Shown one piece after another: positions 9,080 to 29,140 of a stretch of 64,000 nucleotides of DNA. This DNA comes from a virus. The DNA is taken from positions 129,991 through 193,990 of IMG/VR virus record IMGVR_UViG_3300034107_000725; one strand, written 5' to 3'. A program made the position numbers and the translations under genes. Under the pieces are notes generated by a model that did not search any database, was not told where the DNA came from, and saw only the letters and a program-made list of their open reading frames with translations. Every line of letters starts with the position of its first letter. The stretch's first letter is position 1.

Positions 9080-9814
9080 ATGAACAGCTATCTTGAAGAA
9101 GAGTATAAGCCCGCATACGACGCCTGGAAGCTAGACCAGACACCACCCGGCAACGCTGCCTTCCTGGAAGCGATTCATCCAATCGTGCAGAAGGGTGTGC
9201 AGATGTACGGAGGCGACAGTCCGTTATCCGCAAGTCGCGGACGTTTGATGGCTTTGGATGCTGTACGGAAGTACGATCCCTCCCGTTCGCGTTTGCAGTC
9301 TCACCTGCTAAACCAGATGCAAGGCTTACGCCGAGTCACGCAGCAGCAAAGTCAGGTTATGCGGGTACCCGAGCGAGTGCTATTGGAAAACCAGCAACTG
9401 CATAGGCAAACGCAGGAACTTATGGATGACCTGGGTCGTGAACCTACGGATGCCGAGTTGGCTGACCGTATGGGCCTCTCCATGCCTCGCCTGACGCGTA
9501 TTCGTAAATTCCAGCCCGGTATGAGCTCTGGACAAATTGAAGAACAAAATCCAATGGCAGGTGGCGGTGCCGGGCAAATTCCTGGGCAAAGGGACGCCGC
9601 AGATCTGTGGGCTGAGGTTGTGTATCAGGATCTAAGCCCGATGGATCAAGCCATCATGGAACGTACACTAGGCATGCGTGGCCATAAAAAAATGTCCAAT
9701 CAAGATTTGGCTCGGCATTTGAGTCGCAGCCCTGGAGCAATCACTCAGCGTAAGATGAAAATCCAGCAGTTACTGGATCAGGAACGTGAGCTTTCCCCTT
9801 TTATTGCGGAGTAA
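9080..9814 (+). CDS. RNA polymerase sigma factor, sigma-70 family (FliA/SigF/SigB-like group)
   Basis: Region 2 (AVRKYDPSRSRLQSHL...RVPE), region 3 (ELMDDLGREPTDAELADRMGLS) and region 4 HTH (LSPMDQAIMERTLG...SNQDLARHLSRSPGAITQRKMKI). Confidence 0.88.
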   Translation: MNSYLEEEYKPAYDAWKLDQTPPGNAAFLEAIHPIVQKGVQMYGGDSPLSASRGRLMALDAVRKYDPSRSRLQSHLLNQMQGLRRVTQQQSQVMRVPERVLLENQQLHRQTQELMDDLGREPTDAELADRMGLSMPRLTRIRKFQPGMSSGQIEEQNPMAGGGAGQIPGQRDAADLWAEVVYQDLSPMDQAIMERTLGMRGHKKMSNQDLARHLSRSPGAITQRKMKIQQLLDQERELSPFIAE

Positions 9815-10777: not shown

Positions 10778-12448
10778 ATGAGCCTGACCGTATCAAACTT
10801 TGAATTGTCCAACCTGACAGACCTCGACAACGCCGATGTCCAACAGGTGTTGGAACAGTTGACGACTCAGCTGCAGGAACTCAACCCTTCGTTAGATCTT
10901 AAACGAGGGGTTTTTAAAGATATCGTGGCGTACTATCACGCCGTGCTTGAGACGGCAATTCGTACAAATTTGGAACGCTACCAGTCTGCTCGCAGTCTAC
11001 AGCAGATTAACGCCAACGCCGTTGCCGCAGATTCCACAGTCGTAGATGAGGTTCTTTCTAATTGGGGCATAACCCGTAAGACAGGAACCAGAGCAATAGG
11101 TTCGGTCACTATCGAGATCAGTCAGGCTCGCTCAGTAACCATACCGGCTAACTTCACTTTCTCTGTAAACGGATTAACCTACGTCGCGACTCAGACCTTC
11201 ACCTCGAGAACAAGTGAAGGACAGATTTCTAATCCTGTCACTGACCGCTTACTGGTACAACTGAGTAACGGAAACTGGGCCTTCACTATTGAGGTGGAAG
11301 CTGAAGACGTAGGTTCAAAATATAAGCTAAACGCCGGGGATACGTTAAACCCGGATCGAACCGTCGTATCCTTTGTCGCCAGTTACGCGACCTCTACATT
11401 TAATGACGGTTTAGACGCAGAGACCAACGAACAATTAATCGCTGAACTACAGTTGGGCCTGGCGGCCAAGGCGTTGTCTAACCGCACTAACATGCGATCT
11501 TATCTGCGATCCATACCTGCTTTGAATCTTATAACAAATCAATCCATTGTCGGTTACGGTGACGCCGAGATGTTGCGGGATCAACATACCATTTTTCCGG
11601 TCAGCTACGGTGGCAGAGTGGATTGGTACATTCGCGGCCAAGAAACCCTACAGCGGTTGGCTGTCACGGTAACCGCAACTTGTATCAGCATCGCGGGCAG
11701 TACCAGCACATGGCAATTTGCACTAAACAAGAACGCATCGCCCGGATTTTACGAAGTCACTAAGATTCGACGACAACTTGACGCAAATTTAAATTCCGGA
11801 TTTGAAATCATTCTAGACAGTCGATCCAACGACCTGACAGGTGACGGGTTTATTCCGGACATTACTACAATAGCAGAAGGGGCGTACACCGCGTTTCAAA
11901 CTGCGATCATACAGTTCGTAGATACTGTGACGCTTGTATCCGGGCTGGCTGTAGGGCAGACTGCTCTATACACTTGCGAGCTGATCGGCACTCCACTGAT
12001 TCAAGAAATCCAAACACTGGTATCGAGCCGCGATGTCCGCAGTTATGCCGCAGATGCTTTGGTTAAAGCTCCGGTACCTTGTTTTGTACAGGTGACTCTT
12101 ACCCTAAACAAGACAACAGGAACTATGGTCGACGCGGATATGATTGACAAGATCAAGCTCGCCATCATCGGTGTAGTCAATCGCACAGACTTCGTAGGCA
12201 GGTTGGACGGTTCCTATATCATTGAAGCCGTGCACGGTCTGATTACAGATAACATAAGCATAACTCAATTGGATCTTCTGGGACGTATACGTAGACCAGA
12301 CGGTACATTACAATATTTACGAGACCCGGATTCAATTGTGATCCCGGAGCAACCGGTTAAGATGGTGACAGCAAAAACGGTTCAATTTTTTGCAGAGGTT
12401 GCAGATGTGTCCGTTAACGTAGCATCTACGATTCCTACGGCAAACTAA
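10778..12448 (+). CDS. Baseplate J-like wedge protein
   Basis: LDEVLSNWGITRK.GT.AIGSV motif, VTIPANFTF...Y, VEAEDVGSKY, GLDAETNEQL..L: the gpJ/gp47 pattern. Confidence 0.82.
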   Translation: MSLTVSNFELSNLTDLDNADVQQVLEQLTTQLQELNPSLDLKRGVFKDIVAYYHAVLETAIRTNLERYQSARSLQQINANAVAADSTVVDEVLSNWGITRKTGTRAIGSVTIEISQARSVTIPANFTFSVNGLTYVATQTFTSRTSEGQISNPVTDRLLVQLSNGNWAFTIEVEAEDVGSKYKLNAGDTLNPDRTVVSFVASYATSTFNDGLDAETNEQLIAELQLGLAAKALSNRTNMRSYLRSIPALNLITNQSIVGYGDAEMLRDQHTIFPVSYGGRVDWYIRGQETLQRLAVTVTATCISIAGSTSTWQFALNKNASPGFYEVTKIRRQLDANLNSGFEIILDSRSNDLTGDGFIPDITTIAEGAYTAFQTAIIQFVDTVTLVSGLAVGQTALYTCELIGTPLIQEIQTLVSSRDVRSYAADALVKAPVPCFVQVTLTLNKTTGTMVDADMIDKIKLAIIGVVNRTDFVGRLDGSYIIEAVHGLITDNISITQLDLLGRIRRPDGTLQYLRDPDSIVIPEQPVKMVTAKTVQFFAEVADVSVNVASTIPTAN

Positions 12449-12463
12449 CAGGAGGTTACTTGC

Positions 12464-13378
12464 GTGGCAAAACGAGCAAGCGGACGAGCAGAAGCTATTC
12501 GATTGTTGAAGCAAGACGGTGGTGAAGATCAACGCACCCCGCAACAGATGACGTTTGCCGTGAACTACTTGACGTTCTTTGGCTACATTGCAGTACACTT
12601 GCTGCAAAACCTGGAACTCAAAGATATCAAGGCAGCGATCAAGGCTTTTCAAAAAATCTTTGGCCTAAAAGAGGACGGCACACTCACGCCGCAAACTTTA
12701 CGTGCCATGGAAGGACCTCGATGTGGTTGTCCTGACCACATTGACGCGGACAATAAAAACCACCTTCAATTCATGCGGGCTCAAGAGATCTCAATCGAGA
12801 AACGAGATCGCTGGAACAAGCAAGGATTGAAGTACTTTATCGAGAAGTATCCGACGACCAAGATTCACAAAGACGAGCAGTCGCTTATCTTTGCGTCTGC
12901 CTTCCGGGCGTGGGATGACGTGTGTGGTCTAAATATTTTAGAGTGCAAGAAGGCTGCCGATGCGGATATCATTGTATCTGTAGGCAGTGGGCCTCAGCAC
13001 AACTTTGACGGTGTCGGTGGTACGCTAGCCTGGGCCTATCTACCCACGGGAACAGATCAGCAGCTTACGATGCGATTTGACCTCGAAGAAACTTGGGTAG
13101 CTAAACCAAAAGATCGTGGTGTCTTGCTGCACAACGTGGCCTGCCACGAGTTTGGACATCTTTTGGGACTAACCCATTCAAAGCGACCTAGTGCTTTGAT
13201 GGCTCCATACTACAACCCATTTGTCGCTGTCCCGCAAGAGGACGATGACATCACACGAATTGAAAAACTTTACGGCAAAAACAACCAAATTGCCGCAATT
13301 CATGAAGTCAGTAAAGTTGGCTCTAACCTGACAGTGGAACTGCAGCCGGGCCAAAAACTTACGGTTGTTTGCAAATAA
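12464..13378 (+). CDS. Matrixin (M10A, MMP-like) zinc metalloprotease zymogen
   Basis: PG-binding-like prodomain (IKAAIKAFQKIFGLKEDGTLTPQTLRAM), cysteine switch PRCGCPD (12716-12736), GTLAWAYLP, zinc motif HEFGHLLGLTH (13145-13177) and Met-turn SALMAPYY. GTG start with GGAGG RBS. Confidence 0.9.
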   Translation: MAKRASGRAEAIRLLKQDGGEDQRTPQQMTFAVNYLTFFGYIAVHLLQNLELKDIKAAIKAFQKIFGLKEDGTLTPQTLRAMEGPRCGCPDHIDADNKNHLQFMRAQEISIEKRDRWNKQGLKYFIEKYPTTKIHKDEQSLIFASAFRAWDDVCGLNILECKKAADADIIVSVGSGPQHNFDGVGGTLAWAYLPTGTDQQLTMRFDLEETWVAKPKDRGVLLHNVACHEFGHLLGLTHSKRPSALMAPYYNPFVAVPQEDDDITRIEKLYGKNNQIAAIHEVSKVGSNLTVELQPGQKLTVVCK

Positions 13379-13389
13379 GGAGATCGATC

Positions 13390-13791
13390 ATGCCGATGAC
13401 ACAGCTCACTTTGGATCTGGGTACTTTCGTGACTGCGATCAAGTACCTACTCGCTGCCTGTCTAGTAGCAGTCTGCGTGTTCACGTTTGTCATTCCCTGG
13501 ATACGTGACTTGCTAACCAAGGAAGCCGAAGTTGTTGCAAACCCACGAGCGTCAGGGTTGCCTCGCTTTCGGCGTCGTGACGAAAATCACTGTAGCGACA
13601 CCCCACCTCCATCCGGATTCGCTGACCACTTGAAGGTCATTGAAGCCACGGCTCCCAACGCAGATCCAAAAATCTGGTGGGAATACGCCAAGGCTGAAAT
13701 GACCGAGGCCGAAGTTGCAATCGCTGAAGCCAAGTTGGCTCGGGTTTGCAGCGATGTGACCGCAACTGTGGTGCCAGGGGGGACGATATGA
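13390..13791 (+). CDS. Membrane protein (one N-terminal TM helix), holin-like candidate
   Basis: Hydrophobic segment YLLAACLVAVCVFTFVIPWI; AGGAG RBS; ATGA-coupled to the next gene. Confidence 0.55.
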   Translation: MPMTQLTLDLGTFVTAIKYLLAACLVAVCVFTFVIPWIRDLLTKEAEVVANPRASGLPRFRRRDENHCSDTPPPSGFADHLKVIEATAPNADPKIWWEYAKAEMTEAEVAIAEAKLARVCSDVTATVVPGGTI

Positions 13792-14153
13792 AACCCAAAT
13801 ACACGGGGTTGTTCTGTGGTGTTGCGGGGGTCCTGCTTCTGCTTTGGCCTTCGCAACAGAGTTCACGGCCTACCCCGCCGCCCCCTCCACCGGTAGTTTT
13901 GGATTTGCCGGGTAAGGCTTTTGCCACATATGAAAAGCTGTGGCGAAAGCATACCCAAGATGCCGCTGATAAAATTGTCAGCGGTACGTTAAAAGACGAA
14001 AAATCTGTGTGGGACTTCTTGGCCGCTGGCCAAGAACCTGCACGTAAGGTTGCGTTTGACGAGCTGGCCAAATCTGAGCAGGACTATTTCATCAAGCAAG
14101 GTGGCTGGTCCGCTGCTGCTCATGAGAAGCTATTAAGGAGCTATGCGAAATGA
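13788..14153 (+). CDS. Membrane-anchored Pro-rich protein
   Basis: N-terminal hydrophobic helix (GLFCGVAGVLLLLW), then PTPPPPPPV linker and a helical domain. Confidence 0.6.
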   Translation: MKPKYTGLFCGVAGVLLLLWPSQQSSRPTPPPPPPVVLDLPGKAFATYEKLWRKHTQDAADKIVSGTLKDEKSVWDFLAAGQEPARKVAFDELAKSEQDYFIKQGGWSAAAHEKLLRSYAK

Positions 14154-14971
14154 GCGAATCGCAAACACCTTACGACTACAACTGGGAACTAGAAGATCAT
14201 GGTTACCTTCAGGCCTTGCCTGAGGCTCCCATGACTACTGATGCCTGGCAAGTCTTTTCGCGTCCGTCAGAGGTTGATGCCAGTTGGCACAACAACGAAA
14301 ACCAAGGTCAAATTGGAAGCTGTCAAGGTAACGGGCTGAGCTCGGTCCTGGAACGTCTTGCCTTTGTACAGGGCAAGACTGTTCAACTATCTCGGATCTT
14401 CGCTTACTTGGCAACTCAGAAAATTGACGGGCTGTTGGGAGCGGACAACGGATCTACTATCGCAGGTGGTTGCAAACTTGCAGTAGAGTCTGGTTGTCCG
14501 CTTGAGGCTGCCACAGGGTATCCTTCACGGTATCCGAATGCGACAGAGCGAATTCAAATTCTCAGCCAGGCCAATTACAGTGCCGGGGCTCCTTACAAAG
14601 CTAAATCTGCCTGGCAAGTACCTAAAGATCATAATCAACTTCTAGATTTTATCGGAGGCGGTGGCGGCATCACTTTCGGGGTCCGCTGGTACAATGGGCT
14701 TATCCCACAGGACCGGATTGTTCGCTCTTTCCGGCCTGCCCGTTGCAGTGGCGGGCATGCCATGTGCGTGCTTGGCTACGACACAGATGGAAACTTACGA
14801 GCTTACAATTCCTGGGGTGACGGTTTGTACACAATCACCCCGGAAGCCTGGGTTCAAATGCTGTCAGATAGTTCTACCGCGGCGATCGGGTTAATGGGCA
14901 ACGTAAACGCCGAGCCGATTGACTGGTATCGTAACTCTCCCTACTTCAAGCTAAGGATGAAACCAGAGTGA
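14150..14971 (+). CDS. Papain-like cysteine peptidase (C1 family)
   Basis: NQGQIGSCQG (oxyanion Gln, catalytic Cys), GGHAMCVLGYD (His) and YNSWG (Asn). Confidence 0.88.
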   Translation: MSESQTPYDYNWELEDHGYLQALPEAPMTTDAWQVFSRPSEVDASWHNNENQGQIGSCQGNGLSSVLERLAFVQGKTVQLSRIFAYLATQKIDGLLGADNGSTIAGGCKLAVESGCPLEAATGYPSRYPNATERIQILSQANYSAGAPYKAKSAWQVPKDHNQLLDFIGGGGGITFGVRWYNGLIPQDRIVRSFRPARCSGGHAMCVLGYDTDGNLRAYNSWGDGLYTITPEAWVQMLSDSSTAAIGLMGNVNAEPIDWYRNSPYFKLRMKPE

Positions 14972-15684
14972 ATCGTACTACGTTTAGTGTAAAACACCTG
15001 CAGTTCGTAGCTGCGGGTGTTGCCTGTGTAGGTTTACTGGGATTGGGCTTCATGCTATCCCTTGTCTCTGCCGAGGCAGTTGCAGCTCCTCCACAGATAG
15101 TCATGGCGACCGCGGATGATACTCTTGTCAGTAAGTTTGATGAGGAAGTCAAATCTGCGTTGGTAGACAACCATCAGAAGCAGATGGCTGCGTTGTCTGA
15201 CCAAAAAACCATGCTGCAGAAACTAGATCAATCCGTTCAGCAGTTGTTGGTAAAATCAAAAGAACAGCCAACGCCGCCTCCGGCTCCTCAAGCAGAGACC
15301 AAACCCAAAGTTCAGCCGACTCCAAAGCCTGAACCTGCAAAGGCAATAGCTCCAGCACCTGTAGCTACCACAACTTTGCCAAACCCTGTTCGTCGTTCCA
15401 GCATCATTTGGAATTTGAACAATCGTTGGGACTATTCCACGGAAGAGCTGACGGCCCACTTACTGGCCGAACACAATTTTGAGGCAGCTTCCTACGATCG
15501 AGAACAACTTCAAACGGTACACGACAACCTGCATAACGGGTACACCGCTCTAGGTGACACGGTCGTGCAAGCTCCTGTAGCTCAATCACCTGCGGTACAC
15601 TATCACTATACAGCACCTCAGCGACGTGGCTGGGGACTGCGAAGTGTTGCTTCTTGCCCTGGAGGGACTTGTCCAACGCCATGA
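14968..15684 (+). CDS. Membrane-anchored coiled-coil / Pro-rich protein
   Basis: N-terminal TM (FVAAGVACVGLLGLGFMLSLV), coiled coil (QKQMAALSDQKTMLQKLDQSVQQLL), Pro-rich linker, C-terminal CPGGTCP. GTG start. Confidence 0.65.
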   Translation: MNRTTFSVKHLQFVAAGVACVGLLGLGFMLSLVSAEAVAAPPQIVMATADDTLVSKFDEEVKSALVDNHQKQMAALSDQKTMLQKLDQSVQQLLVKSKEQPTPPPAPQAETKPKVQPTPKPEPAKAIAPAPVATTTLPNPVRRSSIIWNLNNRWDYSTEELTAHLLAEHNFEAASYDREQLQTVHDNLHNGYTALGDTVVQAPVAQSPAVHYHYTAPQRRGWGLRSVASCPGGTCPTP

Positions 15685-15995
15685 GTAACGAACCTAAGCC
15701 AGAAGCCATAAGCTACGACTATCCTGTTGTGATTCCAGCTTCAGTCTATGGACTGCTGGAAAGCCTGCTTAACACAGGTAAGATCTCGCAATCCGGTGTA
15801 GAGTTGGATTTTTCACCGGTGCAGGAGATTAAGATCTCCAACGGCACAGCTCGACTGAACCCGCCTGCCCGCGTATCTCTAGGGTATGGTGGTGTGGCAA
15901 TTCGCACAACTGTGTCTGCCTTAGTCGCTCAAGCAGGTGGGGTGAAGATAGAGATCGACAACTCGCCCATTAATGTTGAGGTACGTCCTGGATGA
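15681..15995 (+). CDS. Hypothetical beta-rich protein
   Basis: ATGA-coupled on both sides; start reassigned to ATG 15681. Confidence 0.55.
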   Translation: MSNEPKPEAISYDYPVVIPASVYGLLESLLNTGKISQSGVELDFSPVQEIKISNGTARLNPPARVSLGYGGVAIRTTVSALVAQAGGVKIEIDNSPINVEVRPG

Positions 15996-16351
15996 ACTGG
16001 GACGCCTTAACCTTAGAATGTTGCCGAGAGCATGGATGCTCTGACCAGCATATCGATATGGCAATGGCTGGTCCGTATTCTCGAACAATCGTTCAAGATA
16101 TGCGGCGAAAACAAATTGACGTACGCACTGCTTCAGATGCCGTACGCCGAGCCTATCTGGCTAATCCACAGGCTAGCCGAGAAGAGATGCGACGGCAGTC
16201 GTATAAATTCATTCTTGGTGGCATCCTTCTTACGATACTACTGCAAGCTCTATTATCCGCCGTAGCCAAGATGGCTATCGAGTGGTTTTTAGATCACGTC
16301 TTCAACAAGCAGGAAACCCGCAATGGCGGTATATCGCTACCCCCAGAATAA
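15992..16351 (+). CDS. Membrane protein (C-terminal TM helix)
   Basis: Hydrophobic segment FILGGILLTILLQALLSAVAKMAIEWFL. Confidence 0.55.
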   Translation: MNWDALTLECCREHGCSDQHIDMAMAGPYSRTIVQDMRRKQIDVRTASDAVRRAYLANPQASREEMRRQSYKFILGGILLTILLQALLSAVAKMAIEWFLDHVFNKQETRNGGISLPPE

Positions 16352-17897
16352 TTTCGACACACCGGAACTATTGCTGGACCTATTGGGCAGTTTCTGGGCT
16401 AACACCTACCAAGGCACTGCTTTGGTAGGTGATTTAACAAGTACTGCCGGGCAAATCGCCCAGCAGACTTATCTGCACCTGCTGGAATTGATAAACAGCG
16501 TATCTCGGTTTGATGTGCCCGTCTACCATCAGGACAATTGGTACGGATTAACCATACGTGAGTCTGAGTTAAACACGGACCCGTCTCTGCTGCCGCAACA
16601 TACAACACCGTCCAGCTATCAGTTCCTTAGTGACGCAACTCTGAGTTATAGCACAGATCCTCAAACAGTAAGACAAAGCCTACAACTATTTGTTGTCACC
16701 AAACCGACTGGCCTTGAGAACGTCAAACTGATTTTTAACCGGCTGACGTCACCGACAGTTGAGCTCCAGAATGGTTTGGACTACTGGATCACAGACTCTG
16801 TGATTGTCTTCCGAGACAATCCATTCAATAATCCGCTGATTGCCCGTCGAGATCTGCTCAATAACTCCGGGCAGATTGTTGACCGCGAGCTCGTCCTTTG
16901 GTTGTACCGTGGTTTATGGGACTGGAATACAGTTTATGAGCAGTTTGGTTACGCCTTACAGCTTCAGTTGAAGTCGAGTGAAGGTTATAAGTCATTTTTA
17001 AACGCCATTTTTGATGCACTTGTAGAAGGTACCAGCCTCCGCACCCAGCAGTTTGCGTTGGCTGCCGTCTACGGTGTGCCGCTAATTATCGAAGCGACTG
17101 AAACGGTCGAGACGATTGCAAAAGATGCGGATAAGCTGAACATCATTACAGATAGTCACGCTTACCAGTTCCCAGTGACTGCGATACCTCTCGTACAGGT
17201 CGGGGACGTTGTACGTGCTGGTGACTCGATAACGAACCTGTTGCAAGTATTTGAGCTCAACCGAGGAGCTGAGATCTCTCCAGCAGACATACAGGCATTA
17301 ACTATCGGTACAGGTGTGCTGGCCTGGGGCTTCTGGGGCGATTTGACGTTTGAAAATAAACAAGTACCCGTCATAGTCGAATCAGATACGGCTGGTCGCA
17401 CCAAAGTCTCATGGGCACTTGGTGGATTTCCGTTTGACGTGGAAAACTTCTGGGACGAAGTACACGCAGCAGGAGTTCAGAAAGGGCAGACGCTTGCCAA
17501 CTTACTGGACACACGGGAAAATCCTGTAGGGCAGCCCACCGCAGGTATGTTGCCAACCACCATAAATCCATTCCAGTTCCTGACAAATAACCTTTTACGG
17601 AATAACGCCTACCTGGTTAAAGTGCGGCCAGGCAGTGAACTTACCGATCGACTGGACTTCATGCCGGTAGAGCAGTTGCGTAAGATTCAACCGCCGCATA
17701 CTCTAATGTTGCTGATTGTTGAATTGGTTCACAGGGATAGTCCTGTTATCATGGAAAATCCAGGAACCGAGACCGATCCGGGCTACGTAGAAACCTTGAG
17801 CGGATTTCCTTGCATGGTCAACTCAGATGATATGGACCCTGCAGTGTACGTGGCCGAGCGGGTTAGAACCAGCGTCATTGGCGGTCGGTGCGTCTAA
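16323..17897 (+). CDS. Baseplate wedge protein (gpI/gp7-like)
   Basis: 524 aa. LLGSFW..TY N-terminus and EGTSLRTQQFALAAVYGVP motif resemble gpI-type wedge proteins. Lies between the gpJ-like gene and the fibre genes. Confidence 0.55.
   Translation: MAVYRYPQNNFDTPELLLDLLGSFWANTYQGTALVGDLTSTAGQIAQQTYLHLLELINSVSRFDVPVYHQDNWYGLTIRESELNTDPSLLPQHTTPSSYQFLSDATLSYSTDPQTVRQSLQLFVVTKPTGLENVKLIFNRLTSPTVELQNGLDYWITDSVIVFRDNPFNNPLIARRDLLNNSGQIVDRELVLWLYRGLWDWNTVYEQFGYALQLQLKSSEGYKSFLNAIFDALVEGTSLRTQQFALAAVYGVPLIIEATETVETIAKDADKLNIITDSHAYQFPVTAIPLVQVGDVVRAGDSITNLLQVFELNRGAEISPADIQALTIGTGVLAWGFWGDLTFENKQVPVIVESDTAGRTKVSWALGGFPFDVENFWDEVHAAGVQKGQTLANLLDTRENPVGQPTAGMLPTTINPFQFLTNNLLRNNAYLVKVRPGSELTDRLDFMPVEQLRKIQPPHTLMLLIVELVHRDSPVIMENPGTETDPGYVETLSGFPCMVNSDDMDPAVYVAERVRTSVIGGRCV

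Positions 17898-26596: not shown

Positions 26597-29140
<2,544 letters not shown>

Follow-up and report, generated by a model that had tools for sequence, protein, structure and literature searches.

The last 64 kb of the single-contig IMG/VR virus record IMGVR_UViG_3300034107_000725 (193,990 bp, 94% complete according to CheckV; genome G000 below, from a large uncultured phage) contain a block of seven open reading frames (ORFs) that encodes two proteases and five further proteins within a baseplate operon. This stretch of 64,000 nucleotides, positions 129,991 to 193,990 of the record, is referred to as the window, and other phage loci and genomes are cited by L and G labels. Nearly all genes of G000 lie on the + strand. 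A preliminary description of the window had reported a matrix metalloproteinase (MMP)-like zymogen, a papain-like C1 protease, four transmembrane (TM) proteins and one soluble protein between gpJ-like and gpI-like genes. Both the arrangement, seven ORFs at 12464-16351 all on the + strand, and this composition were confirmed, the latter by Pfam, a PDB match, hydropathy and structure models. Of the two flanks, the gpJ-like gene stands on its Baseplate_J match, whereas the gpI-like gene has no Pfam match and is placed as the neighbor of J, which it directly adjoins in relative L014; it is syntenic in all relatives. The genes are as follows.

10778-12448, + strand: gpJ/gp6-like baseplate wedge protein, 5' flank of the cassette (Pfam Baseplate_J, 7.5e-12)
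12464-13378, + strand: M10, MMP-type zymogen, 304 aa (Peptidase_M10, PG_binding_1, pro-MMP-9 alignment)
13390-13791, + strand: TM2, ~133 aa, one membrane span, candidate holin-type protein (hydropathy)
13788-14153, + strand: TM3, 121 aa, N-terminal anchor, P7 linker and helical domain (hydropathy and charge, alignment A8)
14150-14971, + strand: C1, papain-like cysteine protease, 273 aa (PDB 3OIS match, phrog_16701)
14968-15684, + strand: TM5, 238 aa, anchor or signal, coiled coil, Pro-rich linker and mini-domain (hydropathy, structure model)
15681-15995, + strand: sol6, 104 aa, predicted soluble, one helix and beta sheet (AlphaFold2 model)
15992-16351, + strand: TM7, 119 aa, tail-anchored membrane protein (hydropathy)
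16323-17897, + strand: gpI-like baseplate protein, 524 aa, 3' flank (synteny; no Pfam match)

The ATGA/GTGA coupling reported earlier was also observed, with overlaps at five junctions, including an ATGA overlap that joins TM3 to TM2 and another at sol6. M10 and TM2 have Shine-Dalgarno sites of their own: the GTG start of M10 has AGGAGG 7 nt ahead, and the TM2 start, ATG at 13390, is preceded by AAGGAG. Promoter- and terminator-like sites between 9000 and 21500 occur at chance level, with no excess. Four of the ~13 ORFs with membrane spans in the 194 kb sit in the cassette, which is the sole such cluster in G000.

Two proteases and their membrane-protein partners

The first gene of the cassette matches Pfam Peptidase_M10 at 2.9e-33 (115.4 bits, cut-off 24) over positions 1-159 of the 159 in the profile, and its residues 31-271 align to pro-MMP-9 with the prodomain included. 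The weaker PG_binding_1 match (1.2e-7) corresponds to the MMP prodomain and does not speak for binding to the wall. A three-helix prodomain with the cysteine switch PRCGCPD (residues 85-91) is followed by the zinc motif HEFGHLLGLTHS and the Met-turn ALMAPYY. H228, E229, H232, G235 and H238 do not vary across 42 family members, nor does M246 in alignment A4; the Met-turn A-L-M-A-P-Y-Y recurs in 97 of 120 homologs, the switch PRCGCPD in 102 and the broader form PRCGxPD in 110. By profile, zinc site, Met-turn and switch, M10 is classed as a member of the MEROPS M10/matrixin family, with the family-invariant Trp190 (L-A-W-A-Y) in place of the structural-zinc His of the MMP motif L-A-H-A-F.

Compared with MMPs (MEROPS M10A; pro-MMP-9, PDB 5UE3; bacterial karilysin, PDB 2XS3), the phage enzyme shares the prodomain switch P-R-C-G-x-P-D, the HExxHxxGxxH motif, the Met-turn and a catalytic domain of ~160 aa. 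It differs in being phage-encoded, in lacking both a signal peptide and a hemopexin domain, in the C-G-C form of its switch, and in the Trp substitution. The family comprises more than 120 clusters at ≥45% identity, all ~300 aa and metagenomic, many of them on contigs of 170-236 kb, and M10 gave no tblastn match in 50,697 GenBank phage records.

The C1 protein has no Pfam match of its own and falls below detection by Peptidase_C1, and two members of its family have a precomputed PF00112 match. Its similarity to xylellain, a C1A protease of Xylella fastidiosa (PDB 3OIS), reached 2.5e-12 with the single sequence and 1.1e-20 with the family profile, and phrog_16701, annotated as “peptidase”, was matched at 1.3e-6. 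The two proteins align over ~190 residues and share the catalytic Q-C-H-N residues (Q52, C58, H203 and N220 in C1), which are invariant in 34 members and conserved in ≥95% of 121 sequences. Unlike xylellain, C1 belongs to a phage-specific family of ~265-275 aa, with more than 120 clusters at ≥53% identity; it has no signal peptide. Among the GenBank phage records above, C1 had just two weak tblastn matches. Neither the M10 nor the C1 family appears to be known from cultured phages, apart from these two weak C1 matches. The only cultured-phage relative of C1 is gp163 of the Burkholderia jumbo phage FLC9 (L146; LC667451.1, 151538-152329 and 157600-157902), with 27% identity and located ~5 kb from an SLT-domain gene.

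Hydropathy indicated a single membrane span each in TM2, TM5 and TM7, and an N-terminal anchor followed by a Pro run in TM3 (from ATG 13788). The charges around the spans (positive-inside rule) predict a cytoplasmic location for the soluble portions of TM2 and TM7 and a periplasmic one for those of TM3 and TM5. The predicted cytoplasmic C-terminal domain of TM2 is basic at first and then strongly conserved, and TM7 carries a charged N-terminal region of 70 aa before its C-terminal span. TM3 would be inserted N-in by charge (type II), with an 80-aa helical domain in the periplasm; its alignment (A8) contains 34 invariant residues. Neither Pfam nor PHROGs holds a match for TM2, TM3, TM5, sol6 or TM7. 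The “holin-like” label initially given to TM2 and TM7 is backed by no family match in Pfam or PHROG, and holins are too diverse for that absence to count.

The structure model of TM5, a confident one, consists of a TM helix, a 48-residue coiled coil (51-98), a proline linker and a two-helix mini-domain. Its family (65 representatives at 50% identity, P0246-P0310) shows near-invariant H164, H169, H185, D186 and H189 together with C-terminal C230-x4-C235, and these H-x4-H, H-D-x2-H and C-x4-C positions suggest a small, undescribed metal-binding domain in the periplasm. A lipobox (L-x-G-C) is present in at least 19 of the 65 representatives and in the syntenic homologs of L067, L068 and L070; TM5 of this phage has an anchor or signal with no clear lipobox. 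The structure model of TM5 matched coiled coils only (Z ~5), and its family profile gave no PDB sequence match. For sol6, AlphaFold2 predicted one helix and beta strands at pLDDT 68, with no Foldseek match at E ≤ 0.001, and 16 residues are invariant in alignment A5. The ESM Atlas offered no usable look-alike for sol6 or TM5.

Conservation of the cassette and M10 enzymes of unrelated phages

Comparison with relatives revealed a graded conservation of the locus. The J protein is 33-69% identical in six relatives, and M10 or the I-like gene always comes next. Where J identity is 60-69% (L010, L011, L017/18, L064-L070), the whole seven-gene cassette is kept. TM2 is retained at 42-52% identity in L009-L011, L017 and L063-L067, and TM7 at 35-44% in L009-L011 and L063-L070 (38-39% in L068-L070). 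L009/L063 keep the anchor of TM3 alone, and three other genes stand jointly in place of its C-terminal domain, C1 and TM5; they encode another protein of the anchor-plus-domain type, a Cys/His protein of 374 aa and a thioredoxin-motif protein that resembles a lipoprotein. This joint replacement suggests a functional unit. The 374-aa protein of L009 was considered as a further papain-like enzyme, which the comparisons did not show: it had no PDB sequence match, and hhalign aligned 13 columns around the His motif (E 0.23).

At J identities of 41-46%, only M10 stays beside J and is followed by secreted proteins, all with signal peptides, namely a CxxCH protein of 520-590 aa, a PSCyt1-like protein, a Q/V/P-rich protein or a single 114-aa protein (L015); in L012 and L016 the slot holds CxxCH and PSCyt1-type secreted proteins. 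In L014, where J identity is 33%, J and I are adjacent and the slot is empty. M10 identity is 45-76% versus 41-69% for J, indicating a similar rate of divergence. M10 is the conserved core of the slot, the rest of which varies by lineage, and nearly all genes there encode exported or membrane proteins. The view of the cassette as a conserved unit whose genes are transcribed together, with two intact proteases and envelope-targeted proteins, is supported. As a separate observation, a secreted protein of 520-640 aa with one CxxCH motif and no Pfam match follows M10 in six divergent phages (for example L016:7996-9765, L012:12620-14194, L077:10159-12072 and L079:3807-5639), often with a PSCyt1-like protein behind it.

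A profile scan of IMG/VR for M10 returned 79 loci. Beyond the clade with J-M10 synteny, it revealed a large set of smaller phages with M10 genes of 195-233 aa. A twin-arginine signal (RR-x-F-L type plus a hydrophobic stretch), often with a Cys motif behind it, was found in 26 of 35 distinct short M10 ORFs, 25 by regular expression and L092 by eye. The twin-arginine translocation (Tat) pathway brings folded, metal-loaded proteins to the periplasm. Since Tat export would send the short enzymes there, they cannot be virion or prohead components, which points to phage M10 enzymes that act in the envelope and are not parts of the capsid or tail. Short M10 genes with Tat signals occur among L085-L124 (e.g., L092:549-1193 and L096:8857-9483), some with a lipobox after the signal (L096), and L087 carries two short M10 copies with two small membrane ORFs between them.

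Small membrane ORFs lie within two genes of the short M10 in 20 of 28 loci (odds ratio 2.8; Fisher p 5e-4, an optimistic value as the loci are related), and one of these neighbors matches a holin PHROG weakly (0.0019). Second proteases were also observed. A trypsin-like protease with a Sec signal is encoded directly upstream of M10 in L077 and L079 (2.8e-12), and the same S1 domain lies two genes from the Tat-M10 in L096, L106 and L116. The trypsin-like genes occupy L077:8247-9044 and L079:1862-2548, and L096:5329-7668 encodes the S1 domain within a protein of ~780 aa. M10 is accompanied by a second protease and by exported or membrane proteins in at least three phage groups. In the intermediate group L072-L084, searches with the J and I profiles detected no relatives next to M10, and in L084 and its kin M10 and a secreted partner are located away from recognizable J and I genes.

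Wall hydrolases, other genome content and host

A six-frame search of the 94%-complete genome with 11 Pfam families of peptidoglycan hydrolases (Phage_lysozyme, Amidase_2, SLT, M23, NlpC_P60, CHAP, Amidase_3, GH25, GH19, M15_4 and GH108) gave nothing above the curated cut-offs. The same pipeline found SLT in Burkholderia phage FLC9 at 1e-14. A weak Peptidase_M23 match in G000 (E 0.015) maps to RNA polymerase beta', within the C-terminal piece of that subunit, and was rejected as a lysin; similar sub-threshold matches in relatives were rejected likewise, lying within ORFs of more than 1000 aa. Among the matches listed by Pfam for 210 of the 211 called ORFs, no lysin family occurs. The Pfam tallies for alignments A1 and A2 comprise the best 25 of 38 and the best 25 of 29 families, and the six-frame searches cover the remainder for the 11 named families only. 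The earlier statement that no muramidase, amidase or transglycosylase is recognizable in the window held, and the full-genome search for endolysins extended it to the whole genome.

In addition, SLT, Phage_lysozyme and Amidase_2 had no above-cut-off match in 28 M10-bearing phage records (G000 and 27 others), 10 of which are ≥90% complete and which include genomes of 354 and 408 kb, and NlpC_P60 and M15_4 were absent from 15 M10 phage records. As negative evidence in very divergent genomes, the apparent lack of a wall hydrolase is suggestive, not conclusive.

Several other features of the genome were recorded. A gene for a sigma-70-type factor (9080-9814 of the window; Pfam Sigma70_r3, 7.1e-7) is located inside the baseplate operon and holds the same position in all six of six relatives, at 31-68% identity. 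Positions 72240-72731 of G000 (L005:240-731) encode a coiled-coil protein of 163 aa whose membrane span is C-terminal; BLASTP showed no relationship to TM7, and the protein could be another candidate for lysis timing. Collagen repeats make up most of a 3030-aa protein (G000 105906-114998; Pfam 1.2e-169) and are borne by an 842-aa fiber (window 26612-29140). Pfam matches among ORFs in the first 59 kb of G000 (alignment A1 members) comprise Tubulin/FtsZ (1.4e-8), Ferritin, two TOD1/MUCI70 glycosyltransferase-like proteins and DUF5672.

The preliminary description had pointed to planctomycete envelopes as unusually rich in protein, Cys and Pro. PSCyt1, a domain typical of Planctomycetota and relatives, was above the curated cut-off in 5 of 18 M10 phages and in none of 14 control bacteria. 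All five are more distant relatives, with M10 identities of 41-49%, and PSCyt1 was not found in G000. A planctomycete host is indicated for these relatives and not for this genome, for which it is plausible but unproven. The premise of a proteinaceous wall is outdated, as planctomycetes reportedly do have peptidoglycan in their walls. A search of 185,579 species genomes with M10 yielded no host assignment: its sole close match, a contig of 25.6 kb binned with a metagenome-assembled genome of Nanopelagicales, is probably a binning artifact, and the other matches are distant cellular M10 genes from many phyla.

Possible roles in phage exit

We tentatively favor, as a real possibility that falls somewhat short of probable, the reading that the cassette is a late-expressed egress (lysis) module within the baseplate operon, with latent proteases acting in place of an endolysin or alongside one. 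This reading is preferred because the enzymes lack export signals, the membrane proteins are of both topologies, the genes are coupled, no peptidoglycan hydrolase is recognizable in this genome or its relatives, and homologs of M10 in other phages have Tat signals. The active sites of C1 and M10 are also under purifying selection in large families. The lysis or entry module with two proteases proposed at the outset is partly supported, and the comparative data strengthen it: the coupled unit of proteases and envelope proteins, the missing recognizable wall hydrolase and the exported M10 homologs speak for it. Lysis and entry are not separable by sequence alone.

As we picture it, the cassette would be expressed late, together with the baseplate genes, and TM2 and/or TM7 would permeabilize the inner membrane at the end of infection. 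Latent M10 and C1 would then reach the periplasm, where the cysteine switch of M10 might open, perhaps by oxidation of the Cys pair in C-G-C, perhaps by cleavage through C1. Targets of the two proteases could be peptides of the wall or proteins of the envelope, for instance those that tether the wall to the outer membrane or form a surface layer, and TM3 and TM5 may assist on the outer layers in the manner of a spanin pair.

Several points weigh against lysis. We know of no M10 enzyme that cuts peptidoglycan. Pfam, PHROG, Atlas and fold searches assigned none of the cassette proteins to a holin, spanin or endolysin family. Since only about one quarter of the ORFs of the genome match Pfam at all, a wall hydrolase of highly divergent sequence could have escaped detection. 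Small membrane ORFs flank M10 in just 3 of 12 loci of the intermediate group L072-L084. The position of M10 between two baseplate genes, its lack of an export signal and its J-like divergence also fit a virion component.

That last point leads to virion-borne entry enzymes, in which M10, and perhaps C1, would sit on or near the baseplate and digest surface-layer or envelope protein at attack, the membrane proteins being passengers or assembly helpers. M10 always directly follows Baseplate_J in relatives that keep J-M10 synteny, and a latent zymogen devoid of a signal peptide suits storage in the particle. Large myoviruses usually carry an SLT or lysozyme domain on tail parts for entry, and as this genome has neither, another protein may do that job. 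However, M10 homologs of other phages are Tat-exported and the neighboring trypsin-like proteases Sec-exported, and exported proteins cannot join virions in the cytoplasm; membrane anchors preclude four of the seven cassette products from being part of the virion, and L084 and its kin keep M10 and its secreted partner apart from recognizable J and I. We regard such an entry role as unlikely. A further proposal is that M10 trims the collagen-like fibers of the phage itself, the 3030-aa and 842-aa proteins described above, during assembly. MMPs are collagenases, and collagen repeats are above cut-off in eight of nine searched records of the J-M10 clade (G000, with 30 matches, G002-G005 and G007-G009). 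There are none in G010, a record that retains J-M10-I, or in any of the Tat-M10 phages tested (G016, G018, G021, G023 and G025); exported homologs cannot process cytoplasmic fibers, and co-occurrence inside one clade amounts to a single event. Fiber trimming seems very unlikely to us.

The variable content of the slot, from seven genes here through CxxCH and PSCyt1-type genes in L012/L016 and the single 114-aa protein of L015 to none in L014, is typical of accessory islands and would suit a moron hot spot with a late, non-lytic function in the envelope. Such a function might be the removal of receptors or surface proteins (re-adsorption, superinfection exclusion) or the breakdown of envelope or periplasmic proteins for nutrients. 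The occurrence of M10 and C1 each in more than 120 clusters with tight length conservation argues instead for a core role, and the full coupling to structural genes together with the lack of another lysis candidate fits lysis more simply, so that we consider a non-lytic function improbable.

Protease-based lysis would have partial parallels in known systems. Like the holin-endolysin-spanin cassettes of phages that infect Gram-negative bacteria (lambda S-R-Rz/Rz1 and P2 Y-K-lysABC), the block is a tight, coupled late cluster in which soluble enzymes without export signals stand beside small single-span membrane proteins, and the predicted type II TM3 and coiled-coil TM5, a lipoprotein in sister phages, recall i- and o-spanins. 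Unlike them, it encodes MMP- and papain-type proteases instead of a glycosidase, amidase or LAS/CHAP peptidase, has no holin or spanin family match, and is located between J and I in a baseplate operon; the endolysin of a canonical lysis cassette was found by Pfam searches in neither the cassette, the window nor the genome. Exported endolysins offer a further comparison. Lys44 of fOg44 and Lyz of P1 are exported by Sec or signal-arrest-release (SAR) signals, and P1 Lyz is activated by cysteine rearrangement. Similarly, the Tat-M10 of other phages would be exported before lysis and must stay latent, and a cysteine-based activation would recall that of P1 Lyz; the differences are export by Tat, a protease in place of a muramidase, and latency through a zinc-cysteine switch. 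Baculoviruses encode a papain-like protease (V-CATH) and, in granuloviruses, an MMP, both of which act late and break down host barriers for release. One virus with a papain-family and an MMP-family protease resembles the present case by analogy only, for baculoviruses are viruses of eukaryotes, their enzymes take the secretory route through the endoplasmic reticulum, and homology does not extend beyond the family level.

A broader reading, on which we are rather doubtful, is that a widespread, undescribed egress system exists in uncultured aquatic phages, some of them infecting Planctomycetota or relatives. In this system MMP-type proteases would replace peptidoglycan hydrolases, be released through a membrane lesion or exported by Tat, be kept latent by the switch, and usually be paired with a papain- or trypsin-like protease. 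The literature searched contained no paper on phage M10 proteases or on lysis by planctomycete phages. If the lysis reading is correct, the cassette is a new variant of phage lysis, undescribed in that literature.

To our knowledge, every well-studied tailed phage of wall-bearing bacteria exits by cutting peptidoglycan. If true, exit by proteases would reveal a different weak point of the host envelope, such as its protein tethers or protein layers, and a new way of timing lysis through a zinc-cysteine switch opened by redox change or cleavage. It would also supply enzymes of a new class that act on bacteria whose envelopes are unusual. Annotators would obtain a marker for the many metagenomic phages in which no lysis module is found, and MMP-type zymogens would gain a role in prokaryotic viruses.

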